From NCBI GenBank assembly GCA_963822445.1, contig CAWGHO010000002.1:2208001-2272000 (forward strand): a DNA stretch of 64,000 nt, given 5' to 3'. A program made the position numbers and the translations under genes. This DNA comes from an uncultured Acidobacteriota bacterium. GTDB taxonomy: Bacteria > Acidobacteriota > Thermoanaerobaculia > Gp7-AA8. Positions 1,084 to 18,593 of the stretch are shown here, piece by piece. The notes under the pieces were generated by a model. It was not told the DNA's origin. It worked only from the letters and a program-made list of their open reading frames with translations, and did not search any database. How positions within the stretch are numbered: position 1 is the stretch's first letter; each line of letters starts with the position of its first letter.

Positions 1084-1177
1084 GCTCTGCCGTCCATCTC
1101 GATATCTCGCTTCACGGAATGGAAGTGTAGCGGAGACGGCGCGGGGAGGTTGCTTTAGCTGCCCGCTGTTTTCGTCG

Positions 1178-1376
1178 GCCTAACTACTGCCAGGAGCTGT
1201 CGGCGGGCTGGCTCCGTGGCCCGTCGGCCGAGCCGACTCGGCCGACTCCAAGTTGCGCGGCGTCACGGCCGTGGCAGATCGCTCCTGCCTACAAAGGCGT
1301 TGGTCGCGGCAACGGCCGCGCCGCTCTGCTGGTTGCGCCGGTGAACCCGCCGCAGCTCAGGCGATAGACGTTAGGC
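1178..1376 (+). repeat. attC-like site 1 (199 bp, subtype A)
   Basis: GCCTAAC-TACTG-CCAGGAGC ... GCTCAGG-CGATAGAC-GTTAGGC. Confidence 0.9.
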
Positions 1377-1623
1377 CGACGAATGACGATTGGCGTGACG
1401 GCGCGCTTTCCATGAGGCTCCGCGTACCGGGATGCTCGCCGCAAGCCAGATAAACTACCGCGTCAGTTGGAGCGTGTTAGGCCGGCAGACAACACGCGCA
1501 ATGGAATGCCGACTTCGCCCATGCGTCGTCGTACGTAAGCTTGGTCTGAGCACCCTGAACGGTGCAGGGTGCCAGACACGAGTGGTATAACAGGGACACG
1601 ACCGACGACAAAGGAGTTCTGAC

Positions 1624-1824
1624 ATGAGCACACGAGCAATGATGGTTTTTCGCGGTTGGCTAATGCTGTCACCACAAGAGCGAGCTGAGGTGCTCCAACG
1701 TATTCATGCCTATATGAATGCCTCCCAGCAGCAGCAGGCACAAATCGAACAGAGCCTCGGATTGCCGCCATCGCATTCACGCAATCCGGATGCATGTCCA
1801 TGTTGCGGGAGGCTCGGTATTTAG
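1624..1824 (+). CDS. Small protein with C-terminal CPCCG motif (cassette)
   Basis: AAGGAG RBS upstream; paralog at 2031. Confidence 0.75.
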   Translation: MSTRAMMVFRGWLMLSPQERAEVLQRIHAYMNASQQQQAQIEQSLGLPPSHSRNPDACPCCGRLGI

Positions 1825-2030
1825 TCGATATGCGCAGATCGCGTCACCCGTCCTCTGCGCGTTTGGACAAAGTGTTGAGCCGGCACGGCGCTTGCCATCC
1901 GCATCGTCAACACTAGCTCGATGCGGTTCTGCCGCGCCGACTCATGCTGGGATGTTCTCGAAGTGTAATGTTTGAGTGGCAGGGTTATGACTGTGACCCC
2001 CGCATCCACCCTTGAATGAGAGGAGGATTT

Positions 2031-2237
2031 GTGAATGGACGCACCGCACTCGTGACAATTGGTTATGTACGTCTGTCACGCGATGAGCAGCAGACCGTCT
2101 TAGAGGTTGCGGCTGAGTTTGCTGCGGTTGCGCCACACCAGCGCGAGCCCTTTATGGCATCGCTTCAAGTTACGCTGTCAAACGACACCTCAGGAACCGA
2201 TCGGTATTGCCCGTGCTGCGGCCATTTGCGTGGGTAA
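2031..2237 (+). CDS. Small protein with C-terminal CPCCG motif, paralog of 1624-1824
   Basis: AGGAGG RBS then GTG 2031; N-terminus aligns ungapped with upstream ORF. Confidence 0.75.
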   Translation: MNGRTALVTIGYVRLSRDEQQTVLEVAAEFAAVAPHQREPFMASLQVTLSNDTSGTDRYCPCCGHLRG

Positions 2238-2417
2238 GTTTCGTTATGTTCCCTATACCGTGGCGAGCGCCGGCCTTCTAAGTGACTGCTCGTATTTGTT
2301 GAAACAAGGATCGCATTTTCACCCAGCACCGGACAAAAAGCGTGGGAAATGGACAAAAATAGTCAAAATTAACCGTCAGTTAGTTGCTTCGTTGTAGCTC
2401 GGCGGAGCCGGGTGGCG

Positions 2418-2614
2418 GCCTAACTCCTGCCAGCAGCGGATGGCGGGCCGTTCGCCGCTCTCGGGCCTGAAGGCCCTTTTCTCTGCCGAGACGCACGGCG
2501 TCACACCGCTTGCAGATCGCGCCCGCCGGCTTGACTCTGGTTGCGGCAAGCGGCGCGCCGCTGCCGCCGCATGCACGCGGGGCCTCGCCACCGCTGAGGC
2601 GATCAACGTTAGGC
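2418..2614 (+). repeat. attC-like site 2 (197 bp, divergent)
   Basis: GCCTAAC...CCAGCAGCGG / CCGCTGAGG...GTTAGGC. Confidence 0.85.
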
Positions 2615-2868
2615 CGACGTTTCCACAGTTTCCGTGACGGCACGCTTTCCATGAGACTTCGCGTACCTGCTCGCTCAGGGCAAACGGTCATCGCCGTCGC
2701 TGGAGCGCGTAAGTCCGACCGCGCGCAACCTAAACTCGGCGACTTTCTACTCGTTGGCCATCAGCGGAAAATCCTTATCACGCCCGACATGGGCTCAGAA
2801 GTTAGCCAAAGCGCTCGCAGCATTCCAGAAGAAGCTATTCTGAATTTTCCGCCCATTCGCGTTGTCGC

Positions 2869-3519
2869 TTGGCGAACGCTATACTTCTCTCCAAGGACAG
2901 TACCGGTGAGCGACGATCGCGAACACGGCACGCGTATTCCCTCAAGCAGGCGATTGCTCGCACTCCTCGTCGGCACACGACCTATGGGGGTATAGACGAA
3001 ATGGCTGGTCAGGTCCGCAATCTCACCTCAGTCGTCGACGTTCTCAAACGTCACTGTGCACGAATACTGGAACCTGATGACGACACACTAACCTCCATGC
3101 AGAAAGAGGCTCGTCGTGTCGCACTAACCAAAGACATGAAGAAAATTGGCCTGTCGTTTAGCATCGACCACGACATCGATGCGATTACATTCATCTGGTC
3201 ACGGGCACTGAGCGTAATGGACACTGGAACAATTAACGACGTCCTCCCTGTGGGCGACTACCCCATTCACCTCTCCCTGAGCGAGCAAGTGACGGTGCGT
3301 TTCGAACCTAGAAGTCTCGGCGATTGGTCCGAACGGCATAGAGTTGGCAACCGCAAGTTCGCCGATCTCAAGAAGGGGGATTTGTACGAGTTTCACGGTG
3401 TGACCCGATACGGTCGCTGCTACGTCAAGCAAGGACTCGAAGGCAGTTTTGTTTTTGACGTCGAGGCGCGTGGTCTCGCCGCATTCTTCGGAGGTCTCCT
3501 AGCAGCTCCTGGCCAATAA
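2869..3519 (+). CDS. Hypothetical cassette protein (start uncertain)
   Basis: Longest ORF in cassette, lower GC than the host region, ends before attC3. Confidence 0.55.
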   Translation: MANAILLSKDSTGERRSRTRHAYSLKQAIARTPRRHTTYGGIDEMAGQVRNLTSVVDVLKRHCARILEPDDDTLTSMQKEARRVALTKDMKKIGLSFSIDHDIDAITFIWSRALSVMDTGTINDVLPVGDYPIHLSLSEQVTVRFEPRSLGDWSERHRVGNRKFADLKKGDLYEFHGVTRYGRCYVKQGLEGSFVFDVEARGLAAFFGGLLAAPGQ

Positions 3520-3643
3520 CTGGTTGCATTGAAAGCGTACCGTCGTGACGTCAGGTCGAGAGCTATCTTTCACGCGCAAGGTTCGTCCCGTCTGTACCGA
3601 CAAGACTGGTTCCTGGCCATCAACCAACCTGTTCCGGTCGGCG

Positions 3644-3840
3644 GCCTAACTACTGCCAGAAGCTGGCACGGCCCGGCTTCGGTCCGGCGGCCGAGCCGCC
3701 TACATCATCGCCAGTCGGACGGCGTCACGGCGGTTGCAGATCGGCAGGCGTTGCATGCAACTTCTCGCCGGCAACCACCGCGCCGCTCTGGCTTCGGCAC
3801 GTGGGCCCTGGCCGTGCAGCTTAGGCGATAGACGTTAGGT
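3644..3840 (+). repeat. attC-like site 3 (197 bp, subtype B); IS481 inserted in its R' core
   Basis: GCCTAAC...CCAGAAGC / GCTTAGG...GTTAGG. Confidence 0.9.
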
Positions 3841-4873
3841 GTGATGTGTCAGGACGTTGTTCCTTGAAGCGGGTTGTCCATCCGGGCGACTTTCGTCAAT
3901 CTGAAAGCTCTCAAACGAACAGGTTGACAGGAAGGAACCCAGATGGACGTGCACAAGAATGCGCGAAGCTGCCCGTTGAGTCGAGCACTGCTGGTCAAAC
4001 GAGTCTGCGAACAAGGATGGTCGGTGCGCGAGGCGTCGGAGGCCGCCGGTATGAGTGACCGGCGAGGGCGGGAGTGGATCCGTCGTGGTCTGAGGGTCGA
4101 GCCGCTTAACGATCGGAGCTCCAGACCGCACAGGGGCCGGGCCACGAGCGACATAAAACGACAGCGTGTTCTGAGTCTTCGCCGCGAATGGCGGACTGTG
4201 CGACAGATCGCGCAGGCAGTGGGCGTGAGTGCGTCGACAGCAGCGCGGATCTGCCGGTCAGCAGGGCTGGCTCGGTTGCGTCAGCTTGAGCCGGCAACAG
4301 TGCCAATTCGGTACGAGAAGGAGCGTCCGGGGGAACTGGTGCACATCGACATCAAGCGCCTGGGACGGTTCAATCGAGTGGGACACCGCATCACCAGGCG
4401 TCGATCGTTTGGCTCAAAGAAGCAGGGCTTCGAGTTCGTGTACGTCGCGACGGATGACTTCACCCGACTCTCCTACGTCGACGTCCTGGCAGATGAGCGT
4501 AGCGAGACTGCCAGCTCGTTTTTGACTCGGGCGGTGGCGTGGTTCGCTCAGCGGAATGTCATCGTCGAGCGGGTGATGACCGACAACGGATCGGCCTTCA
4601 TCTCACGCGACTTCCGGGATACCTGCAGCCGCCTGAACCTCACTCACGTCCGCATCCGGCCGTACACACCACGGACGAACGGTAAAGCGGAGCGGTTCAT
4701 CCAGACGCTGCTGCGCGAATGGGCCTATCGGTTCTCGTACCACAGCTCCGAGGAACGGCGCCGTTGGCTCGCACCGTACCTTCACTTCTACAACTACCAC
4801 CGAGCGCATACCGCGCTCTCTTACAATCCACCCATCAGTCGCCTGGATCGGAACAACGTCCTGAGACGCAACA
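3840..4873 (+). mobile_element. IS481-family element, copy 1
   Basis: IRs TGTGATGTGTCAGGACGTTGTTCC / GGAACAACGTCCTGAGACGCAACA; flanked by GTTAG(G) direct repeats. Confidence 0.93.
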
Positions 4874-4878
4874 GTTAG
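3943..4878 (+). CDS. IS481-family DDE transposase
   Basis: HKNAR N-terminus, PGELVHIDIK, VMTDNG, RPYTPRTNGKAERF. Confidence 0.95.
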   Translation: MDVHKNARSCPLSRALLVKRVCEQGWSVREASEAAGMSDRRGREWIRRGLRVEPLNDRSSRPHRGRATSDIKRQRVLSLRREWRTVRQIAQAVGVSASTAARICRSAGLARLRQLEPATVPIRYEKERPGELVHIDIKRLGRFNRVGHRITRRRSFGSKKQGFEFVYVATDDFTRLSYVDVLADERSETASSFLTRAVAWFAQRNVIVERVMTDNGSAFISRDFRDTCSRLNLTHVRIRPYTPRTNGKAERFIQTLLREWAYRFSYHSSEERRRWLAPYLHFYNYHRAHTALSYNPPISRLDRNNVLRRNS

Positions 4879-5048
4879 GCGGCCGGAAAGCCAATCACGC
4901 GGCGGCGCCGGCACGGGAACCAAAGCGACAGATCCTGGCTTCGTTTTCGAGGTCCGCGGGCTGATATGACTCGCACGTGGTTCTCCATCGGCCGACCCAT
5001 TCCACGATCATCGGGTCCATGCGCCAATATCAAATGTAGACTATCCAA

Positions 5049-5762
5049 ATGAGCGCGAATGACTCATTGGAGGATCGCATCAACGATATCGCTGTCTCTG
5101 TGACGAAGGGTGCGGTTGGTGCGATCCCGTTTGTGGGCGGTCTGATGGCTGAAATCATTGGCCAGGTAGTCCCTAACCAGCGACTTGACCGGATCGCTGA
5201 TTTTGCGCGCGCTCTTGCCGCCCGACTCCAGCACATCGAACAGAACGTCTTAGCGCAAGCACTCAACACGCCTGAGGGATTGGATACTCTGGAAGATGGC
5301 TTCGTCGCAGCATCCCGGACGCTAACAGCAGAACGCCGTGCACGGCTTGCAGGGGCGGTCGCGAAGACGTTGACAAGTGCTGATGTCGATCATGTTTACA
5401 AGAAACGACTACTGCAGCTTTCGAGCGGGCTAAGCGACGCGGAGCTGATCATGCTTCAGGCGGTAGAAATGTACGGTCGCAACGCAATTGACGTCGAGTT
5501 TGCGGCCCGCCATGAGCTGATACTTCGCGGCCCAGCCTATCGCGTTGATACCCGGAAAGAAGATCAAGCAGAGTACATACGGCACGAGAGTCTCGTGCAG
5601 AACCTGCTCTCCCACAAGCTCGTTTCGCCGTTCGCCAACGCAAATATGGTAGTCGGTATGTCCGTGCCGCCGCTATTCGCGGATGGAACGTGGCAAGCGA
5701 ACTATGAGATTACTCCCTTGGGTCGGGACGTGCTCGCTGTGATAACTGATGCGCCGCTGTAG
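5049..5762 (+). CDS. Hypothetical cassette protein, Abi-alpha/DUF4393-like
   Basis: GAVGAIPFVGG N-terminus, LSDAELIML, C-terminal ITPLGRDVL winged-helix-like ending; family call from motif recall only. Confidence 0.55.
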   Translation: MSANDSLEDRINDIAVSVTKGAVGAIPFVGGLMAEIIGQVVPNQRLDRIADFARALAARLQHIEQNVLAQALNTPEGLDTLEDGFVAASRTLTAERRARLAGAVAKTLTSADVDHVYKKRLLQLSSGLSDAELIMLQAVEMYGRNAIDVEFAARHELILRGPAYRVDTRKEDQAEYIRHESLVQNLLSHKLVSPFANANMVVGMSVPPLFADGTWQANYEITPLGRDVLAVITDAPL

Positions 5763-5770
5763 CCGCCGCC

Positions 5771-5971
5771 GCCTAACTACTGCCAGGAGCTGTCGGCGGG
5801 CCGTTTGCCGCGCCCGGCGCTGAAGCGCCTCGTTCGGCGTCGAATGGCCGGCGGCACGCCGGCCGACATGCTCTCGCGCCGCTGGTCGCGGCGCGACTTG
5901 CTGCAGCCGTCGCGCCGCGCGAACCGCTCGCACGCGGGGCCTCGCCGCAGCTCAGGCGATAGACGTTAGGC
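5771..5971 (+). repeat. attC-like site 4 (201 bp, subtype C)
   Basis: GCCTAAC...GTTAGGC with L boxes. Confidence 0.9.
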
Positions 5972-6022
5972 GGACGAACCGGTGGACTCCCGTCACCAAT
6001 GAGACGACGCTATACTCGATCC

Positions 6023-6766
6023 ATGAGACTCCTGCTCGGTCTTCTCGCCACCGTGATGCTTTCGGCATGTACTTCGACACCCGTGAACGGCTCAGCGCAG
6101 AGCGTCGCCACGCGCCGTGTGGCGATTGAGGACGCGATCTTCACGTACGTTCCGAGGTCCACCAATGATGCCTCCACTCTCCCGACCGGTGTAATCTACG
6201 CCGGTCTGGATGTGGACGGGTCGCAGCTATTCCTGTGTCGCGCAGCATGGGCTAATGGCGTTCATCCCGGAAAAACGTGGGACCGACCGCACGCGACGTG
6301 TAACATCGGGTATGGCGGGGGTGAAGTGGCGGTTCCGACGTTTGAAGTGCCAATCGTCCGCCGGAAATTCGCCGCCAACGAAGTATTCTGGGACTGCGTC
6401 GGGGAAGGAACCCCGGGCAGCCCTCATGTGTTTAATTGGTCTCGGTATGTCGTCGGGGGTCACGAAAACAACGGCACGCTGGGCTATTGCTTAGCCAGTT
6501 ACAGTGACAATGATGGCGGACTATGCCCGGAGGACGCGAAGTCTCGACTTGTGCCTGGCAAGTTGCTGCCTGGACCGGTCGGCTCTGACGCACCGCGTTG
6601 CTACTTTGGACTTTTTGGTCAGGAGCAGCAAAGAACAGTGTTCACGTATATGCTTTATAGCTGTTGTTTCGCTAGCCAAAACGCAGCTACATGCCAAGGA
6701 GACCGGCCCAATCGACCGTGTTCGGCTGAAGATGTGTCCGGTTATGCGCTAGCGTCAAAACCGTAG
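6023..6766 (+). CDS. Lipoprotein with DM9/DUF3421 repeats (cassette)
   Basis: Lipobox LSAC; LFLCRA...GVHPGK...CNIGYGGGE and a second LVPGK...CYFGLFGQE repeat. Confidence 0.75.
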   Translation: MRLLLGLLATVMLSACTSTPVNGSAQSVATRRVAIEDAIFTYVPRSTNDASTLPTGVIYAGLDVDGSQLFLCRAAWANGVHPGKTWDRPHATCNIGYGGGEVAVPTFEVPIVRRKFAANEVFWDCVGEGTPGSPHVFNWSRYVVGGHENNGTLGYCLASYSDNDGGLCPEDAKSRLVPGKLLPGPVGSDAPRCYFGLFGQEQQRTVFTYMLYSCCFASQNAATCQGDRPNRPCSAEDVSGYALASKP

Positions 6767-6791
6767 GTGATCAAGCCCGCGAGCATCCGCC

Positions 6792-6990
6792 GCCTAACTA
6801 CTGCCAGGAGCTGTCGGCGGGCTTGCTCCGTGGCCCGTCGGCCGAGCCGACTCGGCCGACTCAAACCTGCGCGGCGTCACGTCCGTTGCAGTTCGCTCCT
6901 GCCGTCAAAGGCGTTGGTCGCGGCAACGGCCGCGCCGCTCTGCTGGTTGCGCCGTTGAACCCGCCGCAGCTCAGGCGATAGACGTTGGGC
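6792..6990 (+). repeat. attC-like site 5 (199 bp, subtype A)
   Basis: Closely similar to site 1; ends GTTGGGC. Confidence 0.9.
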
Positions 6991-7275
6991 GGACCCGGCG
7001 CGAAACGTAGGCCGGACTTCTATTTACGCGTTGGCAGTCGCGCCGACAGAAGCGGCGTAGCCGCGCGCCAAGGCGTCCGCCGCCATTTTCGTCGTGGTAC
7101 CCGCCCGCCCACCGGCTGCTCGCACCAGCAGCGCGCGCGGGGCACGATCTGCGTAGGCCAGTGACCACAAAACTCGAGACGCACTGACGTAGCGGGCCTT
7201 CGGCCACGCGCGCTTCGCGTCGTGCACCATTTGCCGCGCGCGCTGCTCCCAGCGCGCAAAGCTGTGCGTGTGGCC
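6985..7275. other. ORF-less cassette, copy 1
   Basis: About 290 bp between attC sites; homologous to 14791-15089; no conserved long ORF. Confidence 0.75.
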
Positions 7276-7464
7276 GCCCAACAACTCACAGCAGCTGTCG
7301 CGGCCCGGCTTCGGCCCGGCGCTGAAGCGCCTGGGCCGAACAGTACCGTCGCGGCGGCACGCCGGCCGCAATTCGGTTCATTCGTTAATCGCCGGCAGCC
7401 GGCGCGCCGCGCTGCCGTAGCCACGCAGGCCCTGGCCGCGCAGCTGAGTGAGATGACGTTAGCC
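7276..7464 (+). repeat. attC-like site 6 (189 bp, subtype D)
   Basis: GCCCAAC-AACTC-ACAGCAGC ... GCTGAGT-GAGATGAC-GTTAGCC. Confidence 0.88.
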
Positions 7465-7569
7465 GGACCGAGATAGGGTGGGGGAACTCAGGAGAACTCC
7501 GGGCGGGAGGGAAAAGTGCGCACGCGGCCCTCCTACTCATGGGCAGATGAGCTGCCAAGGAGAGAATAT

Positions 7570-8406
7570 ATGCGCCAGGTGTATGCCGCGATCTTCATCA
7601 TTCTCATGACCGGTAGCGTGGTAGCTGCCGAGAAATCCTCGACCGAAAAACCGTCGACAATTTTCGTGCGCGAGTGCAAGGCACTCACGAAAACCTTGCC
7701 GGATCTTGCGCTGCCGTGCACGGATTTCGTGAAGGGCAAGTCGGACGAAACTATACGCGCCTATTTGGCAATGATTCAGAGCGCGCAACAGCAGTTGGTA
7801 GCGCAAGGCCCGGAACTCGCTCAGTCCATCATGAAGGGCTGTATGGCGAATACGGTGGCTGAGAAGCCCGACTTAGGCGGTCTGCTCTTTTGCCTGCGAA
7901 TTCGTCGGAACGGAACCGATCTTGAGAAGCTCTCCAAGGGAGAGGGTTCGTGGGGCGAGTATGCAAAACTGGCCAACGACGCATCGAAACCAGTGCCGTC
8001 GTATCCTGTAGAGGACACAGCGCAATCGGAGAAGCAGCGCGCCGCGGTTCGTCAGGCTGTCGTATATGCGTGTGTAAAAGAGGGAGATGGGTATGTCCGC
8101 GCACTCTGCGGGGCTGTAGCCGCTCATGAGGCATTTGCATCGCGGCCATTCGGAGACAATGGGGAATTGGCCAAAGCTTTCGACACCGTCTTGAAAGTTT
8201 ATGCGATCACCGAGGCGCCGAAGCAAGCGATTCAGGCGGAGGTCAAAGAGATACTTCAGCGCGCAGGCTTCAACGATCAGGTCGCCCAGGCGGTGGCGAA
8301 TCCACAGAAGGGAGTCGAGGAAGGCGCCAAGCATGTCGCGGGTGAGGCACAAAAGGCCGGCGAGGCGGTTGCGAAGGCAATCCAATGCATTTTCGGGTGT
8401 GGATAG
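7570..8406 (+). CDS. Secreted Cys-containing hypothetical protein (cassette)
   Basis: AAGGAG RBS; signal peptide MRQVYAAIFIILMTGSVVAA. Confidence 0.75.
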   Translation: MRQVYAAIFIILMTGSVVAAEKSSTEKPSTIFVRECKALTKTLPDLALPCTDFVKGKSDETIRAYLAMIQSAQQQLVAQGPELAQSIMKGCMANTVAEKPDLGGLLFCLRIRRNGTDLEKLSKGEGSWGEYAKLANDASKPVPSYPVEDTAQSEKQRAAVRQAVVYACVKEGDGYVRALCGAVAAHEAFASRPFGDNGELAKAFDTVLKVYAITEAPKQAIQAEVKEILQRAGFNDQVAQAVANPQKGVEEGAKHVAGEAQKAGEAVAKAIQCIFGCG

Positions 8407-8426
8407 GTGTGCTGAAGCACGGGGCC

Positions 8427-8623
8427 GGCTAACTACTGCCAGAAGCTGGCACGGCCCGGCTTCGGTCCGGCGGCCGAGCCGCCTGCATCATCGCCAGCGG
8501 CACGGCGTCACGGCGGTTGCAAATCGGCAGGCGTTGCATGCAACTTCTCGCCGGCAACCGCCGCGCCGCACGGGCTTCGGCACGTGGGCCCTGGCCGTGC
8601 AGCTTAGGCGATAGACGTTAGCC
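8427..8623 (+). repeat. attC-like site 7 (197 bp, subtype B)
   Basis: GGCTAAC...GTTAGCC. Confidence 0.9.
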
Positions 8624-8664
8624 GGACGACGGGGAGACAGATAGGAACGTTATACTGATGACGC

Positions 8665-11283: not shown

Positions 11284-11291
11284 GGTCGGCG

Positions 11292-11491
11292 GCCTAACTA
11301 CTGCCAGGAGCTGTCAGCGGGCCGTTTGCCGCGCCCGGCGCTGAAGCGCCTCGTTCAGCGCTGAATGGCCGGCGGCACGCCGGCCGACATGCTCTCGCGC
11401 CGCTGATCGCGGCGCGAATCACTGCAGCCGCCGCGCCGCGCACCCGCTCGCACGCGGGGCCTCGCCGCAGCTCAGGCGACAAACGTTAGCC
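11292..11491 (+). repeat. attC-like site 9 (200 bp, subtype C)
   Basis: GCCTAAC...GTTAGCC. Confidence 0.9.
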
Positions 11492-11715
11492 GGACGAAAC
11501 GAAACATGCTCTGAATGTCCGCGACGAAGGAACGATGAGGTAGCGGAGGCGCGAGCAGTGACAGTCGGAGCGATGCCGAAGGATGCAGCGACCGTGCATG
11601 GTCCAAGACCAGTGATGCCGAGAGGTGGTAGGGGTGACGGAGTAATCGTGAGGGCAACGTACTCGCTGTATCGGTCCGGACAAGGATCGTCTCCCGCCGT
11701 TTGAGACTGTTAGGG

Positions 11716-12150
11716 CTACTTCGGTCTGGACCTAAGGATGGTACCAAGCGCTTGCAGGTGTCCTGCGCCGCGTTCGATCTCCGCCAACCAATGTTCACGA
11801 TATGGTGCCAGAGTCTTATCGGAGTTGAGATGATGCCAATCTAAATTCTTAGCGTAGATACCCAACTGCTTCAGATCGCGCAGCATCGCGTAGCGAGCTT
11901 GACCTAAGCTGTCTCGCACCTTTGACGTGCAGTCGTCAAAATCGAAAACCAGATGGTTGTACTTCGTTCCCTCGACTCGGGGAATCTTACCATCACGCAA
12001 CTTCGTTGCGATCGCCTCGAGCGCACCGCCCAACGCTGTGAAGTACTCAGCCGCGCGCTCATCTGCGTCAATTTTTCGTTCCCGAATAAGCTCGATTAGC
12101 TTTGCGGTTGTTTCCGCGAGGTCGGTGAGTAGCTTCCATTCAACAATCAT
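11716..12150 (-). CDS. Hypothetical helical protein, antisense to array (cassette)
   Basis: AAGGTGGG before ATG 12150; MIVEWKLLTDLAET... Confidence 0.65.
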   Translation of the reverse strand: MIVEWKLLTDLAETTAKLIELIRERKIDADERAAEYFTALGGALEAIATKLRDGKIPRVEGTKYNHLVFDFDDCTSKVRDSLGQARYAMLRDLKQLGIYAKNLDWHHLNSDKTLAPYREHWLAEIERGAGHLQALGTILRSRPK

Positions 12151-12429
12151 TGCCCACCTTATCGTTAGATGCAGTTGACCACTTTGTTGCTGTAATCCAA
12201 GGACGAGCGTTTGATAGCAAGGTGACCGTCGCCGAGCGTAGATCCGCAATGCTCCCCTTCGGGTGCAGTAAGCCGAAGCGCGTCGCTCTACGTACAACGT
12301 CGTGCGTCGAGAGGTACTGGGCCCGCCAGCTTCCAGAAATCAACTCCGAGTGGTCTCACAAGTAGGAGTGTCGCCTCCGTCGAATTCCCTACCCACAAGC
12401 AAAGCTGGAGATCTTGATCGCCGCGCCGG

Positions 12430-13365
12430 CTAACTGTTGCGTCTCAGGACGTTGTTCCGATCCAGGCGACTGATGGGTGGATTGTAAGAGAGCGCGGTAT
12501 GCGCTCGGTGGTAGTTGTAGAAGTGAAGGTACGGTGCGAGCCAACGGCGCCGTTCCTCGGAGCTGTGGTACGAGAACCGATAGGCCCATTCGCGCAGCAG
12601 CGTCTGGATGAACCGCTCCGCTTTACCGTTCGTCCGTGGTGTGTACGGCCGGATGCGGACGTGAGTGAGGTTCAGGCGGCTGCAGGTATCCCGGAAGTCG
12701 CGTGAGATGAAGGCCGATCCGTTGTCGGTCATCACCCGCTCGACGATGACATTCCGCTGAGCGAACCACGCCACCGCCCGAGTCAAAAACGAGCTGGCAG
12801 TCTCGCTACGCTCATCTGCCAGGACGTCGACGTAGGAGAGTCGGGTGAAGTCATCCGTCGCGACGTACACGAACTCGAAGCCCTGCTTCTTTGAGCCAAA
12901 CGATCGACGCCTGGTGATGCGGTGTCCCACTCGATTGAACCGTCCCAGGCGCTTGATGTCGATGTGCACCAGTTCCCCCGGACGCTCCTTCTCGTACCGA
13001 ATTGGCACTGTTGCCGGCTCAAGCTGACGCAACCGAGCCAGCCCTGCTGACCGGCAGATCCGCGCTGCTGTCGACGCACTCACGCCCACTGCCTGCGCGA
13101 TCTGTCGCACAGTCCGCCATTCGCGGCGAAGACTCAGAACACGCTGTCGTTTTATGTCGCTCGTGGCCCGGCCCCTGTGCGGTCTGGAGCTCCGATCGTT
13201 AAGCGGCTCGACCCTCAGACCACGACGGATCCACTCCCGCCCTCGCCGGTCACTCATACCGGCGGCCTCCGACGCCTCGCGCACCGACCATCCTTGTTCG
13301 CAGACTCGCTTGACCAGCAGTGCTCGACTCAACGGGCAGCTTCGCGCATTCTTGTGCACGTCCAT
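12430..13365 (-). CDS. IS481-family DDE transposase
   Basis: Protein identical to 3943-4878. Confidence 0.95.
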   Translation of the reverse strand: MDVHKNARSCPLSRALLVKRVCEQGWSVREASEAAGMSDRRGREWIRRGLRVEPLNDRSSRPHRGRATSDIKRQRVLSLRREWRTVRQIAQAVGVSASTAARICRSAGLARLRQLEPATVPIRYEKERPGELVHIDIKRLGRFNRVGHRITRRRSFGSKKQGFEFVYVATDDFTRLSYVDVLADERSETASSFLTRAVAWFAQRNVIVERVMTDNGSAFISRDFRDTCSRLNLTHVRIRPYTPRTNGKAERFIQTLLREWAYRFSYHSSEERRRWLAPYLHFYNYHRAHTALSYNPPISRLDRNNVLRRNS

Positions 13366-13468
13366 CTGGGTTCCTTCCTGTCAACCTGTTCGTTTGAGAG
13401 CTTTCAGATTGACGAAAGTCGCCCGGATGGACAACCCGCTTCAAGGAACAACGTCCTGACACATCACA
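12435..13468 (-). mobile_element. IS481-family element, copy 2, inserted in R'' of attC10
   Basis: Same IRs and same length (1034 bp) as copy 1; CTAAC on both flanks. Confidence 0.93.
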
Positions 13469-13664
13469 CCTAACTACTGCCAGGAGCTGTCGCGGCCCGG
13501 CTTCGGTCCGCCGGCCGAGCCGGCTGCTTTTTCGCCAGCGTGACGGCGTCACGGCGGTTGCAGTTCGGCAGGCGTTGCATGCAACTTCTCGCCGGCAACC
13601 GCCGCGCCGCTTCGGCTTCGGCACGTGGGCCCTGGCCGCGCAGCTCAGGCGATAGACGTTGGGC
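13469..13664 (+). repeat. attC-like site 10 (subtype B; original R'' GGCTAAC at 12428-12434 separated by the IS)
   Basis: CCTAACTACTGCCAGGAGC...GTTGGGC. Confidence 0.88.
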
Positions 13665-13972
13665 GGACGAGGGCGACATCGACGTGCGTGCTACGACCAG
13701 CCGGGTCCTCGACATCGAAGGGGGCGAAGCTGAATCACAGTGGAAAATCGACGTGCTACCCCGTGGAACGCTCTCAAACGCCTCTGCCAAATCTACTCGC
13801 GGTAGTTCCCGGCACTTGTTGCGTTTGCGTCGCGGCCTATCGCTACCGTCGCCGTGCGCTTCGATTAGGCGAAGCCGAGATGTCTTTTCGGCGTTTGCGC
13901 GCGTCCAGTGGCTAGGAGATGATTGCGCGCGGTGGATCGGTCGCTCGACTAGTCGCGAGGTAAGATTGAGTT

Positions 13973-14590
13973 ATGAAGCAATACATTCTGAAATGGGGTG
14001 GCCGTTTCGCGTCATCCATCGTCGTAATGCTCGCCACGATTCCCTCAGTGTTTGGCACCTTTCAATCGCAGACAGCTGGTCGTGCGTGGATGTTCGCAAT
14101 TGCGGCTGTCGCTTTGATCGGATTGCTGGTCGATGTTGCATTTCAGGAGCGCGCGGAGGCGCAGTTGAACAGAATCGAGCGTTCATCCGACGAAACTCTC
14201 GAGAGCAACCGCAGGCTGATCCGCATGCTAACGGTGAAGGACCCGCAGACACTCCGAGGGCGCGCGGCGTTACTGTCATCACGTATTCTCATCTGGATTT
14301 CGGAACTTGAAGCCACTGTGTGGTCAGCGAGACCGGTCGCGAAGCCAAACACGGTGGATGCCATCATCGCAGAAGGTGTTACCCGCTGGCACCTGGTTCA
14401 GGAGACGAACGAGATCTTTTCGCGTCTGTTCGCGAAGGACGTTCTAAAGCTCCGCGAGGATCTCCAGCAAGCCGGAGTATCGAATGCGTTCATTGACTCG
14501 TTCTCGCCTGAAAGCAACACGCCCGATGCGATCAGGCTGCTTGCGGTGCACCTCGGCCGCGCTGCCGATCGGCTCCCAGACGAAGTTTAA
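13973..14590 (+). CDS. Hypothetical protein with 2 N-terminal TM helices (cassette)
   Basis: Two hydrophobic segments then a coiled/helical region; stop just before attC11. Confidence 0.75.
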   Translation: MKQYILKWGGRFASSIVVMLATIPSVFGTFQSQTAGRAWMFAIAAVALIGLLVDVAFQERAEAQLNRIERSSDETLESNRRLIRMLTVKDPQTLRGRAALLSSRILIWISELEATVWSARPVAKPNTVDAIIAEGVTRWHLVQETNEIFSRLFAKDVLKLREDLQQAGVSNAFIDSFSPESNTPDAIRLLAVHLGRAADRLPDEV

Positions 14591-14600
14591 GAGAGGCGCC

Positions 14601-14796
14601 GCCCAACTACTGCCAGAAGCTGGCACGGCCCGGCTTCGGTCCGCCGGCCGAGCCGGCTGCATCATCGCCAGCGTGTCGGCGTCACGGCGGTTGCAGATCG
14701 CCAGTCGTTGCGGGCAACTCCTCGCCGGCAACCGCCGTGCCGCTCGGCTTCGGCACGTGGGCCCTGGCCGTGCAGCTTAGGCGATAGACGTTGGGC
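14601..14796 (+). repeat. attC-like site 11 (196 bp, subtype B)
   Basis: GCCCAAC...GTTGGGC. Confidence 0.9.
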
Positions 14797-15089
14797 GGAC
14801 CCGGCACGAAGAGGTAGGCCCGACTTCCATTTACGCGTTGGCAATCGCACCGACTGAAGCGGCGGAGCCGCGCGCCAAGGCGTCCGCCACAATTGCTCGT
14901 CGTGGTACCCGCCCGTCCGCCGGCTTGTCGCACCTGCAGCACGCGCGAATCATGATTCTCGTAGGCAGCCGGCCACAATCTGCCCAAGAGCCGCTATCCA
15001 CGCCGGCCTGACGGCCGAGCACGCATTCCGCGTCGGCCATCATTCGGCGCGCGCGCTGCTTCCAAGCGCGGAAAGTCGTGCGTGCGGCC
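14791..15089. other. ORF-less cassette, copy 2
   Basis: Homologous to 6985-7275. Confidence 0.75.
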
Positions 15090-15280
15090 GCCCAACAACT
15101 CACAGCAGCTGTCGCGGCCCGGCTTCGTCCCGGCGCTGAAGCGCCTGGGCCGAACAGTATCGGCGCGGCGTCACGCCGGCTGCAGTTCGGTTCGTTCGTT
15201 AATCGCCGGCAGCCGGCGTGCCGCGCCCTGCCGTAGCCGCGTGGGCCCTGGCCGCGCAGCTGAGTGAGATGACGTTAGCC
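15090..15280 (+). repeat. attC-like site 12 (191 bp, subtype D)
   Basis: Closely similar to site 6. Confidence 0.88.
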
Positions 15281-15464
15281 GGACCGAAGCGATGCGTGGT
15301 TGAAACGACCAATAGACCGGCGTATTCGTGCGATGCTGCAGTGCACGCTGGCCTGCTCCGGTTCGACCGCAGTGTTATCTTCGTTACCACCGACCGTGAG
15401 CAAACATCCAGTCGCGAACGAGCAGGAGATTTCTTTGCCGACATGGCACCTCAGGAAGTGGCAT

Positions 15465-16127
15465 GTGCCGTCGTGGTGGATCACCGGTTTGGTGCTTCTC
15501 CTGTGTGTCGCGCAGCCGTTACAAGCGTGCTCTTGCGGTGACCGCCCAAAGGCCGCGAAGGTCTTGTCATCTCACGCTGTATTTGACGGGACGGTCGTGT
15601 CCTCTCGACCCTTCATCGATCGATCAGACGACTACTGGTACGTGCTCGAGGAATGGACGTTTCAGGTGCATAGGAGTTGGACACGAGGAGTCCAAGGCGA
15701 TGTCGCTATTCGTGCCTATCCGCATAACTGTGGCGTCTGGTTTGAGAATGGTGAGCGCGCAATTGTTGTCGCTGTCAATCGCGAAAGGCGCACACTCGGT
15801 GCGTTCAAGTGTGCCTATCCTCGCGAGAATGTTGACGTGTTAAACGCGGACCGTCTGTTGGGGCCGGCTTCGTTCCGCACCGACGGCCCGGTACGGAAAA
15901 GGAGAATCGCGCGTATCGTTAATGTGGCTCGGCGCTTGGTTCTTCACCTCATCGCGGATATCCACAACTGGATCGTTCGCTCCGGTCTTCGTGGCCGCGG
16001 CTACGGCACTGTCATTGCTTGGGCGCTGGCGACATGCGTGCTCTTCGCTATCTTGGTCGTCGTTCTATCGTTCCGGCGACTGCGAGGTCGCGACAAGAAT
16101 GAGCCGCCTTCCATGGCAGCCGGCTAA
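15465..16127 (+). CDS. Exported, membrane-anchored protein with ACSC (TIMP/NTR-like) motif (cassette)
   Basis: Signal peptide then ACSC, VFDGTVV, CGVWFENGE, C-terminal TM; stop in R''; GTG start inferred. Confidence 0.65.
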   Translation: MPSWWITGLVLLLCVAQPLQACSCGDRPKAAKVLSSHAVFDGTVVSSRPFIDRSDDYWYVLEEWTFQVHRSWTRGVQGDVAIRAYPHNCGVWFENGERAIVVAVNRERRTLGAFKCAYPRENVDVLNADRLLGPASFRTDGPVRKRRIARIVNVARRLVLHLIADIHNWIVRSGLRGRGYGTVIAWALATCVLFAILVVVLSFRRLRGRDKNEPPSMAAG

Positions 16128-16320
16128 CTACTGCCAGGAGCTGCCGGCGGGCCGTTTGCCGCGCCCGGCGCTGAAGCGCCTCGTTCGGCGTTGATGGGCC
16201 GGCGGCACGCCGGCCGACATGCTCTCGCGCCGCTGATCGCGGCGCGAACACGGCGGCCATCGAGCCGCGCACCCGCTCGCACGTGGGGCCTCGCCGCAGC
16301 TCAGGCGATAGACGTTAGCC
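16122..16320 (+). repeat. attC-like site 13 (199 bp, subtype C)
   Basis: GGCTAAC...GTTAGCC. Confidence 0.9.
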
Positions 16321-16487
16321 GGACGAACCACATTTTGGCGTCATGGCACAGCTCCGCTACTTGCACGCTTATCGCGCCCGAAGTCGGCGTTGCCGTCCGC
16401 CAGGCGGTGCGTAGGCGCCACTTGGTCAGGATGCCATCGCGGGTTGAAGTCGACGGTAGCCGGGCGCAAGGGCTGAGGAGTAGACTG

Positions 16488-16718
16488 ATGCCAATGCTCG
16501 GCCAAAACGAGGTCATCCACACCGATCCCGAGATTCTTGCCGGTGAGCCGGTATTCGTCGGAACGCGAGTGCCGCTAAGAAACCTCTTCGATTATCTCGA
16601 GGCCGGCGATTCGCTCGAGGTCTTCCTCGATGCATTTCCCGATGTGACGAGGGAGCAAGCTGTGGCGGCCCTAGAACTTGCTAGAGAGGCGGTAACCGCG
16701 GGTGCGGGTTCTCGTTGA
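16488..16718 (+). CDS. DUF433 antitoxin
   Basis: DPEILAGEPVFVGTRVP...FLDAFPDVTREQ. Confidence 0.9.
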   Translation: MPMLGQNEVIHTDPEILAGEPVFVGTRVPLRNLFDYLEAGDSLEVFLDAFPDVTREQAVAALELAREAVTAGAGSR

Positions 16719-17025
16719 TCACTGTCTTCCGCGCCATCTAGCCGTAGAACTCACTGGTCACGAAGCCACGACGGTGCGTGCACAGCGGTGGTCCGGCCTT
16801 CGTAACGGTGTCTTGCTCCGGGCTGCGGTCGACGCAGGGTTCGACGTGTTCATCACGAACGATTCGAGCATCGAGTTTCAGCAGAACGTGAAACGCATCG
16901 GTATCGCCGTGATCGCGATCGTGGGTTTTCGAAATCGCATGGAAGACCTCAGACCTCTTCTCCCGCGGATCCTAAAGGTATTGATCACAATCAAGGCGGG
17001 CGAGCTGATAACGATCTCTCGTTAG
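16702..17025 (+). CDS. DUF5615 PIN-like toxin
   Basis: MRVLVDHCLP, FDVFITND; overlaps the DUF433 gene. Confidence 0.85.
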   Translation: MRVLVDHCLPRHLAVELTGHEATTVRAQRWSGLRNGVLLRAAVDAGFDVFITNDSSIEFQQNVKRIGIAVIAIVGFRNRMEDLRPLLPRILKVLITIKAGELITISR

Positions 17026-17197
17026 TGTTTGCGGCAAAGCACAATCCAGGGCGCGGGGTGGCATTCAGGGCTACGATGTGTTGTTATTTTCGCGTGCCGC
17101 ATGCTGCGGGACGGCGAGGTTCGGCATATGTACTCGAACGGCAGCGCTGGTGCGTTCTGCATAGCGCGCCTTGAAATCGGTGGGGAAGCGGGGCGCC

Positions 17198-17394
17198 GGC
17201 TAACTACTGCCAGAAGCTGGCACGGCCCGGCTTCGGTCCGGCGGCCGAGCCGCCTACATCATCGCCAACGGGACGGCGTCACCGCGGTTGCAGATCGGCA
17301 GGCGTTGCAGGCAACTTCTCGCCGGCAACCGCCGTGCCGCTCGGGCTTCGGCACGTGGGCCCTGGCCGTGCAGCTTAGGCGATGGACGTTAGGC
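17198..17394 (+). repeat. attC-like site 14 (197 bp, subtype B)
   Basis: GGCTAAC...GTTAGGC. Confidence 0.9.
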
Positions 17395-17481
17395 GTACTG
17401 CGGGCGGGAGTCGCTAGGAAGACCCCCGAAACGGCTACAAGCATGCGTTACTATCTGCTAGGATCGCCGCGAGGACACGTC

Positions 17482-18391
17482 ATGGTGGGTAAAGCAAAGC
17501 GAGCAAAGTACACTGAGCTTCTAAGACTCTTGCGCGCCGGCGACACGGAAGACAATCCTGGTGTAATCATGACGAACGGCGACGCTGTTGGCCTCGGAGC
17601 CGACCTTGATAACTATTTTGCCAGCCGTGAACACCGGCAGGCAGTACTAGGGTTAGATATCTATAAATACAGCCGCTTCGAAACTAAGCGCCAGCGCCTC
17701 GTGCCGGTACTTTTCAGGTATCTCTACGATCAGGCAATGCACTTTTGCGTCCGTGATGAGCCGTCAATATTAGCGAGCAGATTTCAAAGATAGATTCATA
17801 CCGACGGGGGATGGCGGCTTTCAAATCTTCGCGACTCCACTGCAGGCATTAGTCTTTGCGACGTTTTTTCAGTCAGCGCTCATAGGCTATAATTCTTGGT
17901 TGACCTTCCCGAAAGTTCGGCGTCTAGTAGGCGACCTGACTCTTCGCTATACGTTGACATTTGATGACGTATTTCAGCTTGACGGTAACTGGTTCGGTGC
18001 GGGCATCATAACTAACGCGCGTATCATCAGTCGCGACGCACTCAACCGTTGTCTCGCGGATGCAGCCTCTATCGCATGGTTTGCAGAGCGTATTGGCGCG
18101 ATCGAGTCCCTCCTCGTTTTGCAGGGTAGCGATCTTTTAGCCATGACTGATCGTCCGATGCAGAGCGCGCCACCTAGCCTGCTGTTTCCAAGTGCTTCGG
18201 CGGGCAACTATCCGGAAAATTCATTCAGATCCTTGAATGTGCAGAAAATCGGCAACGTTGCGGTCAAGGGGAGTGATCTTGACGTGTATAACGTGTACGC
18301 GCAAGTCGTTGTGTGTCACACGGGAGGCGATGCGCGCCGTAATGTCATAGTCACGCTCGGCAATCTGAACGCTGGTGGTGTCACGGTGTAG
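17482..18391 (+). pseudogene. Class III nucleotidyl-cyclase-like protein, frameshift near 17775 (cassette)
   Basis: VLGLDIYKYS in first frame; manual translation of second frame gives FIPTGDGGFQIF, continuing to LRYTLT...NWFGAGIITNARI. Confidence 0.65.
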
Positions 18392-18393
18392 AC

Positions 18394-18593
18394 GCCTAAC
18401 TACTGCCAGGAGCTGTCGGCGGGCCGTTTGCCGCGCCCGGCGCTGAAGCGCCTCGTTCGGCGTTGAATGGCCGGCGGCACGCCGGCCGACATGCTCTCGC
18501 GCCGCTGATCGCGGCGCGACTTGCTGCAGCCGTCGCGCCGCGCACCCGCTTGCACGTGAGGCCTCGCCGCAGCTCAGGCGATAGACGTTAGCC
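18394..18593 (+). repeat. attC-like site 15 (200 bp, subtype C), last of array
   Basis: GCCTAAC...GTTAGCC. Confidence 0.9.

Follow-up and report, generated by a model that had tools for sequence, protein, structure and literature searches.

Long attC sites at the distal end of a large sedentary integron on the chromosome of an uncultured Acidobacteriota bacterium

The window analysed here, a stretch of 64,000 nucleotides from the genome of an uncultured Acidobacteriota bacterium, contains near its left end a series of gene-sized units separated by repeats of about 200 bp. These repeats resemble the attC sites of integrons, for which reviews give a length of 57-141 bp, and the question is therefore whether such long sites can belong to an integron and, if so, to an integron of which kind. 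The initial annotation had proposed an integron lineage that is sedentary and whose oversized attC sites are tightly constrained in length, had predicted from site orientation that the integrase gene (intI) and attI would lie to the left, and had kept as an alternative a CALIN, i.e. a cluster of attC sites without an integrase (Cury et al. 2016, PMC4889954). Our data indicate that positions 1178-18593 are very probably the distal end of a ~106-kb sedentary chromosomal integron of at least 86 cassettes, whose long attC sites contain a folded inner module. In the following, coordinates prefixed C2 refer to the contig carrying the window, and unprefixed coordinates are window positions.

The 15 sites of the initial annotation were recovered exactly by a covariance model (consensus of 198 positions) run with filters off over window positions 1-24000, which returned 15 full-length matches of 189-201 bp (147-184 bits, E 1e-33 to 4e-42; Table 1), and none between 18593 and 24000; read in the opposite orientation, the sites scored at most 18 bits. 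It should be noted that this model and the HMM used below were trained on sites from the same array, the covariance model partly on these very 15, so that scores on the array are not independent and independent checks weigh more. The proposed site layout was upheld in its AAC...GTT triplets, present in all 15 sites, and in its spacing, with 5 nt after R'', 8 nt before R' and an L'' longer than L' by one base. The strict box consensus was found to hold for R'' in 11 sites (GGCTAAC in the other four) and for R' in nine (GTTAGCC in the other six). The middle of about 150 bp, described as variable, is instead conserved and contains covarying hairpins, column identity averaging 75% across the entire window sites.

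Table 1. Features at the left end of the window. The top strand of each attC lies on +, the recombinogenic bottom strand on -.
Feature	Position	Strand	Details
IS1595-family element, right end	1..418	-	~2.8 kb; transposase N-terminus 3-368; Zn_ribbon_IS1595 E 7.6e-16
Putative inverted cassette body	419..1177	-	CrtO-like acyltransferase 433-1083 (-), Pfam CrtO E 3e-23
attC 199 bp	1178..1376	+	174 bits; bottom fold -62.9 kcal/mol, z -4.9; pfold 0.73
Cassette body	1377..2417	+	small paralogous ORFs 1624-1824, 2016-2237, each ending in a CPCCG motif
attC 197 bp	2418..2614	+	162.5 bits; pfold 0.90
Cassette body	2615..3643	+	ORF 2869-3519, 216 aa, no family match
attC 197 bp	3644..3840	+	183.7 bits; R' core interrupted by IS
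IS481-family element, ~1034 bp	3840..4873	+	transposase 3943-4878; LZ_Tnp_IS481, rve
Cassette body	4874..5770	+	ORF 5049-5762, 237 aa, no family match
attC 201 bp	5771..5971	+	167.9 bits; pfold 0.73
Cassette body	5972..6791	+	ORF 5999-6766, DM9 repeat, E 7.7e-9
attC 199 bp	6792..6990	+	170.7 bits
ORF-less cassette body (~480-bp cassette)	6991..7275	+	one of 12 array copies
attC 189 bp, variant subfamily	7276..7464	+	146.9 bits; fold -68.5 kcal/mol, z -6.2
Cassette body	7465..8426	+	ORF 7516-8406, 296 aa, no family match
attC 197 bp	8427..8623	+	182.2 bits; fold -66.6 kcal/mol, z -5.5
Cassette body	8624..9687	+	TIR-domain protein 8665-9693; TIR_2 E 3.7e-12
attC 197 bp	9688..9884	+	177.7 bits
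Cassette body	9885..11291	+	ORF 9890-10342; FRG-domain ORF 10467-11120, E 9e-25
attC 200 bp	11292..11491	+	169.3 bits; fold -72.1 kcal/mol, z -3.9
Cassette body	11492..12434	-	ORF 11716-12297 (-), 193 aa, no family match; terminates in pre-insertion R'' core
Second IS481-family copy, identical	12435..13468	-	transposase 12430-13365 (-)
attC 197 bp	13468..13664	+	174.3 bits; apparent R'' first base is an IS base
Cassette body	13665..14600	+	ORF 13973-14590, 205 aa, no family match
attC 196 bp	14601..14796	+	170.8 bits
ORF-less repeated cassette, second window copy	14797..15089	+	repeat comparison
attC 191 bp, variant subfamily	15090..15280	+	147.4 bits
Cassette body	15281..16121	+	ORF 15300-16127, 275 aa, no family match
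attC 199 bp	16122..16320	+	156.7 bits
Cassette body, toxin-antitoxin-like pair	16321..17197	+	DUF433 ORF ending 16718; PIN-like/DUF5615 ORF 16702-17025
attC 197 bp	17198..17394	+	173.2 bits
Cassette body	17395..18393	+	ORF 17900-18391, 163 aa, no family match
attC 200 bp, last of array	18394..18593	+	175.5 bits

The window's sites are the final 15 of an array of 86 same-strand full-length attC sites (187-201 bp, mean 195) that occupies ~106 kb (C2:2120564-2226593). The integrase gene was found where site orientation had placed it, 89 kb left of the window and 1.5 kb upstream of the first array site: an intact ORF of 321 aa (C2:2118113-2119048, + strand), with the cassettes on the same strand. 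Its product matches TIGR02249 with 456.4 bits (cut-off 265), the sole match above cut-off among the nine listed genome-wide, and its residues 15-319 align to residues 13-318 of VchIntIA (PDB 2A3V; E 2e-93); the integron-specific segment, which the initial annotation had suggested searching for, aligns without gaps, and all catalytic columns (R, K, HxxR, H, Y) are matched. The closest relatives of this integrase likewise point to the Acidobacteriota as the host phylum. Just downstream of intI lies a candidate attI, with a short motif before GTT common to three of seven aligned species, the remaining intI-proximal region not aligning. Since an intact intI precedes the first site by 1.5 kb, the window's array is part of a sedentary chromosomal integron, and the CALIN reading falls; since the array is continuous with intI and the candidate attI, the integron is complete. 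The CALIN-like loci of this genome are others, namely 18 further loci at which the long-attC family is represented by full or partial sites, with no integrase in the vicinity.

Repeats that are GC-rich, palindromic and located between genes, with a few solitary copies elsewhere in the genome, might also be intergenic elements of the REP or MITE kind that have nothing to do with the integrase. This reading is hardly credible in view of their distribution: 90 of the 124 genome-wide HMM matches concentrate in the array, which directly follows intI and makes up 1.8% of the genome, rather than being scattered as the initial annotation had considered, 86 of the 87 full-length array sites share one orientation, and the association with intI is seen again in six other genomes. 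Also unexpected for REPs is a chain of complementary cores that runs across neighbouring sites. In 81 of 85 neighbouring pairs, R'' is fully complementary to the R' of the site before it, but only in 31 of 85 to its own R' (1000 shuffles: mean 26.3, maximum 40). Such a pattern is the mark left by crossover at G|TT, and the cassettes are bounded at G|TT like integrase-made joints. There are four exceptions to the chain, two of them due to IS481 insertion in the core.

The units between the sites are unrelated by Pfam comparison, as first described; two carry an IS, two are the same ORF-less cassette, and one is a two-gene toxin-antitoxin-like unit (DUF433 E 5.8e-17; DUF5615 and PIN_10 below cut-off). 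The paralogous CPCCG ORFs matched no Pfam family above cut-off. The ORF-less cassette occurs in 12 array copies, which follow attC sites belonging to different subfamilies and whose limits coincide exactly with the cores; the copies show 82-100% pairwise identity, two being identical, share no common reading frame, and gave no Rfam match. Different cassette contents are also flanked by long-attC sites in four soil metagenomes, where coverage extends to sites of the family but not to the cassette bodies; the public runs containing the sequence hold metagenome contigs only, with 5-6% of its words.

The array also shows wear: three cores have been hit by IS elements, no fewer than four sites have decayed, and one cassette is apparently inverted. 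One IS481 copy sits in an R' core, with a 6-bp duplication (GTTAGG), and the other in the R'' core of the attC at 13468..13664; relative to GTTAGG, both copies point the same way, and their 1050-nt arms are 100% identical. The IS1595-family element is inserted beside an attC core; this attC is inverted and lies immediately to the left of the window. The 8-nt word TAGTTAGG is present at both flanks of the element. The attC of the CrtO-like cassette is the inverted site C2:2205449-2205647, and this unit would be an inverted cassette. At 10310-10376, a partial match (model positions 53-117, 24 bits) marks a decayed attC remnant, and the unit containing it probably consists of two fused cassettes. 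Such insertions and fusions would suit a fossil array, in which the attC sites are true ones, recombination has ceased, and the uniform long sites reflect common descent; in addition, 10 of the 34 other genomes of the genus have no intI at E 1e-40, and several have only intI fragments or an in-frame stop. We regard this as unlikely for the present array, considering that its intI is a complete ORF with every catalytic column matched, that core complementarity is perfect at 81 joints, that one cassette has been multiplied to 12 copies of up to 100% identity, that compensatory changes maintain stem pairing, and that the same site family borders different cassettes in soil metagenomes.

The bottom strands of the four sites examined each beat 200 of 200 dinucleotide shuffles (z -3.9 to -6.2), and bottom-strand pfold has a median of 0.60, exceeding 0.1 in 81 of 83 scorable sites and falling below 0.01 in none, in agreement with the R/L bottom-strand hairpin that was expected of attC sites. 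The outer parts form on this strand the usual hairpin, composed of R box, unpaired spacer, L box and surplus L'' base; the first pair of the L stem varies among the 86 sites (AU 32, GC 29, CG 25), and in the variant site at 7276..7464 compensatory changes lie beside the L box. The inner part, of about 145 nt, contains two covarying hairpins and near-invariant bases kept across three genera. Among 21 sites from these genera, pairing reaches 97% in the 15-pair hairpin, where both partners have changed at 6 pairs, and 99% in the 6-pair hairpin, where this is so at 3 pairs; the covariation score of 0.236 was reached by none of 500 shuffles (0.113), and slid partners gave at most 0.072. The length of ~195 bases lies well beyond the published range, apparently because the inner part is a conserved folded module: the extra length would consist of ~145 nt with at least two conserved covarying hairpins, which, judging from the predicted structures, would be no obstacle to the recombinogenic fold. 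Other integrons have at this place only a short loop of variable sequence.

It is conceivable that the sites are instead composite, an ordinary short attC into which an independent hairpin repeat, the inner 120-150 nt, has been placed. Inner-only matches do exist, both in other genomes (model positions 33-173, 52-173 and ~54-116) and, three or four in number, within the array. However, the three array matches that were aligned end cassette-like units and have decayed outer boxes, so that they are worn attC sites and not free elements, and no dispersed inner-only family occurs among the 34 HMM matches outside the array; a composite origin is therefore very unlikely. We consider it similarly improbable that the inner hairpins act in top-strand RNA, as terminators, insulators or stabilisers, with recombination needing the outer boxes only. 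Transcription along 106 kb needs organising, and the helices can form on the top strand too: pfold there has a median of 0.47, and the bottom strand exceeds it in just 45 of 83 sites. Nevertheless, the wobble pairs speak for the bottom strand whichever of the two predicted structures is used (147 vs 36 and 83 vs 45 cells), the two best-supported hairpins have 7 pair columns with bottom-strand G.T and none with A.C (G.T on top), and an Rfam search of 6700-8700 (three sites), with E up to 1, matched no family. The bottom strand is also the more stable one in 69 of 86 sites (mean -65.0 vs -62.6 kcal/mol), although both the G.T asymmetry and this predicted difference are modest.

The long, folded attC appears to be a trait of the lineage. 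Among 34 other genomes of the genus, 32 carry sites of this family with unchanged length (30 of 32 when the unpublished G002 and G025 are set aside), which bears out the proposed length constraint, and the family extends to two further genera of the host family; it was absent from 24 genomes of 13 other families of the class. In six genomes (G004, G006, G012, G027, G029, G036) intI is directly followed by long-attC sites, and in three (G000, G005, G016) it is preceded by the same Pep2-like gene. Related integrase loci elsewhere have sites of 58-134 nt, and in all nine with model-found sites intI lies on the cassette strand.

No catalogued family of ~200-bp attC sites was found in the literature on attC sites. 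The published Acidobacteria covariance model (Ghaly et al. 2021, PMC8352920) likewise describes chromosomal attC sites of the same phylum as a taxon-specific marker, but is set apart by its consensus of 106 nt, from 120 sites, against 198 positions here. The chromosomal integrons of Treponema share the atypical arrangement with intI on the cassette strand, whereas their sites measure 63-68 bp, even their "long attC" only 115-132 bp, and their arrays are far smaller.

The closest comparison is with the Vibrio cholerae superintegron, which is described as sedentary and at least ~100 kb in size, with very uniform attC sites whose inner structure is branched, with toxin-antitoxin cassettes, and with the bottom strands serving as leading-strand template (PMC13108822, PMC5371416), and whose integrase aligns with the present one end to end. 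It differs in its host phylum and in the direction of intI, which here is transcribed toward the array, and its attC sites (VCR) measure 120-129 bp, against 187-201 bp; moreover, Vibrio chromosomal integrons are reported to include attC sites with pfold of 1e-5 to 1e-7, far below any of the 83 values obtained here. As to replication, dnaA is located at C2:1338050 and the minimum of the cumulative GC skew near 1.47 Mb. With both of them to the left of the array, the - strand, and with it the bottom strands, would be the template of leading-strand synthesis, as has been reported for sedentary integrons (PMC13108822); given the weak GC skew and an assembly of three contigs, this assignment is provisional. 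In the bacterium, the integrase would act on the folded bottom strand to excise and insert cassettes exactly as in classical integrons, and the array, by analogy with Vibrio cholerae, may be kept as a stockpile in a state of low excision.

A scan for repeats over window positions 1-22000 revealed families of direct repeats of about 200 nt where the initial annotation had placed attC-like sites, and motif scans fixed both ends of each site. The number claimed was correct: a covariance model, run with filters off over window positions 1-24000, found exactly 15 full-length sites (147-184 bits, 189-201 bp), no full-length site beyond position 18593, and a single remnant of an inner hairpin. When the family was traced with an HMM and a covariance model trained on 25 sites, it was found all along C2:2120564-2226593, and the window sites turned out to be the last 15 of an array of about 106 kb, which contains 86 full-length sites on the same strand (187-201 bp, mean 195) and one additional, inverted site. 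The 86 sites fall into two length classes, 187-191 bp (n = 27) and 195-201 bp (n = 59); the longest measure 201 bp (two sites) and 200 bp (seven sites). The AAC and GTT triplets are present in all 15 window sites and in all 86 array sites. The strict consensus proposed for the outer boxes, RYYYAAC/GTTRRRY, describes 11 of the 15 R'' boxes and 9 of the 15 R' boxes in the window, and does not extend to the others, which read GGCTAAC and GTTAGCC. The two spacers are asymmetric (5 nt vs. 8 nt), and L'' is longer than L' by one base.

The source genome (6.0 Mb, three contigs) contains one match above cut-off to the integron integrase model TIGR02249 (456 bits, cut-off 265). The ORF encodes 321 aa, of which residues 15-319 were aligned to VchIntIA (PDB 2A3V) with an E-value of 2e-93; the integron-specific segment is ungapped, and the catalytic columns are matched. 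The gene lies to the left of the window, as predicted, and the array is continuous with it, which removes the alternative that the sites represent a CALIN. The prediction for intI was right as to the leftward place, and needs correction in one detail, in that intI is located on the strand of the cassettes. A candidate attI core, GTTAGGC, is complementary to R'' of the first site. Downstream of intI, the sequences of different species align poorly (mean column identity 44%), and because a short motif preceding GTT is common to only three of the seven aligned species, the attI must be regarded as a candidate.

The window therefore contains the distal end of an integron that is complete and about 106 kb long. 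The sedentary class is marked by large arrays of homogeneous attC sites at a place conserved in the lineage, with a threshold of > 10-19 sites (PMC9024848); the present element has 86 sites, a mean column identity of 75% and a Pep2-like neighbour in three species. With its many homogeneous sites and a chromosomal place conserved in the lineage, it is a sedentary chromosomal integron, as the initial annotation had proposed, i.e. an integron of known type with variant sites, and not a novel kind of system. The intI gene was found behind the same Pep2-like gene in the source genome and in two (G005 and G016) of the five relatives checked, while in the other three genomes checked the two genes are on separate contigs. 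A Pep2/maltokinase-like gene lies to the left of the integron and a gene for a 909-aa protein with an alpha-amylase domain to the right, so that the integron appears to be inserted in an alpha-glucan/trehalose gene neighbourhood.

In integrons, the final six bases of R' belong to the next cassette, and the expected partner of R'' is therefore the preceding site's R', not the R' of its own site. Perfect complementarity of R'' to the preceding R' was observed in 81 of the 85 neighbour pairs, and to its own R' in 31 of 85; the shuffle control gave a mean of 26.3 and a maximum of 40 (1000 shuffles). The joints of the array place the cassette boundaries at G|TT. Insertions of an IS481-family element in cores of window sites account for two of the four exceptions, and when the element was removed in silico, one joint became perfect and the other matched at six of seven positions. 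These repeats could also have been thought of as dispersed elements of the REP or MITE kind, a possibility that the initial annotation had proposed to check by looking for scattered copies. The distribution contradicts this possibility: the array, which makes up 1.8% of the genome, contains 90 of the 124 genomic HMM matches, and its full-length sites are co-oriented in 86 of 87 cases. The remaining 34 matches (13 of full length) fall in 18 small loci.

The R/L hairpin expected of the bottom strand formed in all of the four sites folded (-62.9 to -72.1 kcal/mol), each of which was more stable than 200 of 200 shuffles (z from -3.9 to -6.2). The outer fold runs from the R box (7 bp) through, in order, an internal loop, 2 bp, a bulge of 3 nt, 3 bp and a 1x2 loop to the L stem (6 bp). 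The L stem covaries, its first pair being AU in 32, GC in 29 and CG in 25 of the 86 sites, and the 3-bp outer segment shows double compensatory substitutions in a variant subfamily. The pfold value, calculated after the idea of Loot et al. (2017; PMC5371416) as the probability of forming both the AAC/GTT pairs and the L stem, had a median of 0.60 for the bottom strand, exceeded 0.1 in 81 of the 83 scorable sites and was below 0.01 in none of them; three of the 86 sites were left out, a required pair being non-standard.

As regards length, the literature gives attC sites of 57-141 bp, with most sites of sedentary integrons at 120-129 bp (Loot et al., 2017), and inner structures of 20-100 nt (Cury et al., 2016; PMC4889954); likewise, VCR sites are treated as a long class in a 2024 study, and sites of 115-132 bp are termed long in a paper on Treponema, in which intI is transcribed toward attI. 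With sites of 187-201 bp and an inner part of about 141-155 nt, the present family is outside the classical attC class (57-141 bp, VTS of 20-100 nt). The Acidobacteria attC model of Ghaly et al. (2021; PMC8352920, supplementary model file), built on 120 sites, has a consensus of 106 nt, in contrast to the 187-201 bp of the source genome. In the literature searched, which comprised mostly non-subscription sources, no description of a class of attC sites of about 200 bp was found, a result that does not prove the absence of such a class.

The middle of the sites had been described as variable. It is, on the contrary, conserved, the mean column identity over the whole site being 75% among the 15 window sites. 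The inner part, enclosed by the L stem, contains two hairpins supported by covariation, both among the 86 sites and in a set of 21 aligned sites that represents three genera. In the latter, an interrupted helix of 15 pairs is 97% paired, with six pairs changed on both sides and five that never vary, and a 6-pair inner hairpin is 99% paired, with both sides changed in three pairs. The covariation score of the whole structure was 0.236, compared with 0.113 for shuffles (none of 500 reached the observed value) and at most 0.072 for slid partners. Of the 37 invariant columns in the same alignment, 18 are in the inner part, including both sides of the base of the long bulged helix (8-9 nt per side), which is invariant across the three genera and is conserved like the integrase-binding boxes. 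Wobble pairing speaks for the bottom strand under either predicted structure: in the structure predicted for the bottom strand, G.T cells outnumber A.C cells by 147 to 36, vs. 83 to 45 in that predicted for the top strand, and the bottom strand is more stable in 69 of the 86 sites, with a mean gain of about 2.4 kcal/mol. These strand asymmetries are modest, and suggest that selection has acted on the recombinogenic strand and not on an mRNA. When the inner sequence of 21 sites was shuffled (10 mononucleotide shuffles each), the native version had a pfold above the shuffled median in 17. Our preferred guess is that the inner module may guide folding, allowing the boxes to pair even in a long site. 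A bolder and rather doubtful reading is that the inner 145 nt are a functional module instead of a passive spacer, perhaps recognized by a second factor controlling folding, excision rate or the making of new cassettes; this role may fall to a host protein or to the integrase itself, through an accessory contact. If this were true, the lineage would have a two-part attC site, with a layer of control not described for integrons. Inner-only matches were also considered as free hairpin elements, an interpretation that was discarded because the three aligned copies in the array are worn attC sites.

The site family was found in 32 of the 34 other genomes of the genus (30 of 32 without the unpublished genomes G002 and G025, both positive), and in one of the two other genera of the family searched together with it. 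The site model was applied to six genera of the family, and when the covariance model was run on 24 genomes belonging to 13 other families in the class, it detected the sites in none. Among the matches listed, those in other genomes span 175-214 nt by their coordinates, and are mostly of 193-199 nt. An intI above cut-off is present in 20 of the 35 genus genomes (18 of 33 without G002 and G025) and, in a sample taken across the family, in 18 of 41; in six related genomes (G004, G006, G012, G027, G029 and G036), long sites come after it on its own strand. In a third genus, genome G062 has four sites of 188-207 nt, two of which are within 7 kb of an intI frame with one stop codon. The same genome contains five integrase matches above cut-off, and has sites of 188-207 nt together with sites of about 133 nt; a single cell of this organism may carry several integrons that differ in site class.

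With the same model, which allows its interior to be deleted, sites of 58-134 nt were found at 9 of 80 related integrase loci from other lineages (including Acidobacteriota, Eisenbacteria, Coriobacteriia and Gemmatimonadales MAGs, and one MAG without an assigned lineage), at all nine of them downstream of intI and on its strand. Therefore, the outer boxes and the atypical orientation of intI are widespread, while the long inner module is special to this site family. As for environmental data, contigs from six public DNA runs, all of them soil or other metagenomes, share only 5-6% of the sequence words, and no RNA run containing the sequence is listed among the public sequencing runs. Four of these DNA runs, soil metagenomes of four different studies, have contigs of at least 90% likeness over the attC sites, the regions of an ORF-less cassette and the IS, leaving the other cassette bodies uncovered; these metagenomes provided no usable cassette joints from the source organism. 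Such coverage is in keeping with a shared site family whose neighbouring contents vary.

No Pfam match at E 0.01 was obtained for 9 of the 14 cassette ORFs scanned in the window, and a tenth had only matches below cut-off. The remaining ORFs include TIR and toxin-antitoxin-like genes, and a DUF433/PIN-like pair is among the cassettes. One cassette contains two paralogous small ORFs, whose products each terminate in CPCCG and match no family. A TIR-domain protein is encoded in a cassette, and a second one, of 482 aa, directly past the last attC, where an ORF for an IS30-like transposase overlaps its gene; the two TIR-domain genes may be defence genes.

One repeated cassette is ORF-less and occurs in 12 copies, including a tandem run of three. 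Conservation is high over its first 150 nt, whereas its middle varies; it is always bounded at the cores and is preceded by attC sites of different subfamilies. A coding frame was looked for and rejected, since no frame is open throughout and the copy lengths differ by non-multiples of three. Rfam gave no match in window 6700-8700 at E-values up to 1, and over the whole window at gathering thresholds it gave only a c-di-GMP-I riboswitch, distant from the array and unrelated to it; thus, neither the attC sites nor the ORF-less cassette have an Rfam family. In a second repeated family, the outer boxes of attC are lost and the inner hairpin is kept, and each cassette is therefore fused to the next.

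The two identical copies of the IS481-family element occupy cores of two different sites, R' in one and R'' in the other, in identical orientation relative to GTTAGG; the left-hand copy, for which the flanks were read, is flanked by a 6-bp duplication of GTTAGG. This looks like a core-targeted insertion. Across the left end of the window, the inverted attC precedes an IS1595-family element (about 2.8 kb, carrying passenger ORFs), which is flanked on both sides by the 8-nt word TAGTTAGG, and a CrtO-like gene comes next. GCCTAAC is present at both outer junctions of this unit. Backwards insertion of a cassette at an R'' core would produce such an arrangement.

Table. Location of the integron and of the features discussed. 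C2, contig CAWGHO010000002.1; W, window (C2:2208001-2272000); L001, L090, L091 and L093, stretches of the source genome with local coordinates.
Feature	Location	Strand	Remarks
dnaA	C2:1338050		left of array
GC-skew minimum	C2: ~1.47 Mb		left of array
Pep2/maltokinase-like gene	L001 1-1362
Integron integrase	C2:2118113-2119048	+	321 aa
Candidate attI core	C2:2119405-2119411		GTTAGGC
attC array	C2:2120564-2226593		86 full-length sites
ORF-less cassette	W 6991-7464; W 14797-15280; 10 copies in C2:2155125-2187415		~480 bp, 82-100% identity
Second repeated cassette family	L090 11112-11600; L090 18782-19280; L091 9781-10280		3 copies
Inverted attC, IS1595-family element, CrtO-like gene	C2:2205449-2208425 (L093 6449-9000 and W 1-425)	- (CrtO-like gene)
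Paralogous small ORFs	W 1624-1824; W 2016-2237		one cassette
IS481-family element	W 3834-4883; W 12425-13474		~1034 bp
TIR-domain protein	W 8665-9693		in cassette
Inner-hairpin remnant	W 10310-10376
TIR-domain protein, 482 aa	W 18618-20066	-
IS30-like transposase ORF	W 19877-20839
Alpha-amylase-domain gene	W 21057-23786		909 aa
c-di-GMP-I riboswitch	W 55178-55262	-	53.7 bits (gathering score 35)

According to the established mechanism, the integrase would bind to the R and L boxes of the bottom strand in its folded form and cleave between A and C of AAC; one strand would be exchanged with attI or with another attC, and the product would be resolved by replication. Because dnaA and the GC-skew minimum are both to the left of the array, the bottom strands would be on the leading-strand template, a placement that is provisional, as the GC skew is weak and the assembly is not closed. 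In Vibrio cholerae, this orientation keeps excision low, according to PMC13108822. By analogy, the orientation and the DUF433/PIN-like pair suggest that the array may be a stable stockpile.

Sites of about 195 bp are kept in the whole genus and in at least two sister genera, and their inner part is conserved in sequence and structure, yet good folding is predicted for them. The range of designs known for integron sites, in which the inner loop is usually treated as variable and dispensable, is widened by this family, which also offers a natural test case for the role of inner structure in folding, strand choice and excision rate. Owing to the size caps in attC finders, which by default would be 200 bp in IntegronFinder 2, the integrons of soil phyla may be under-reported. 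With 86 cassettes in 106 kb, the integron represents a large and mostly uncharacterised gene reservoir outside the Vibrionaceae.
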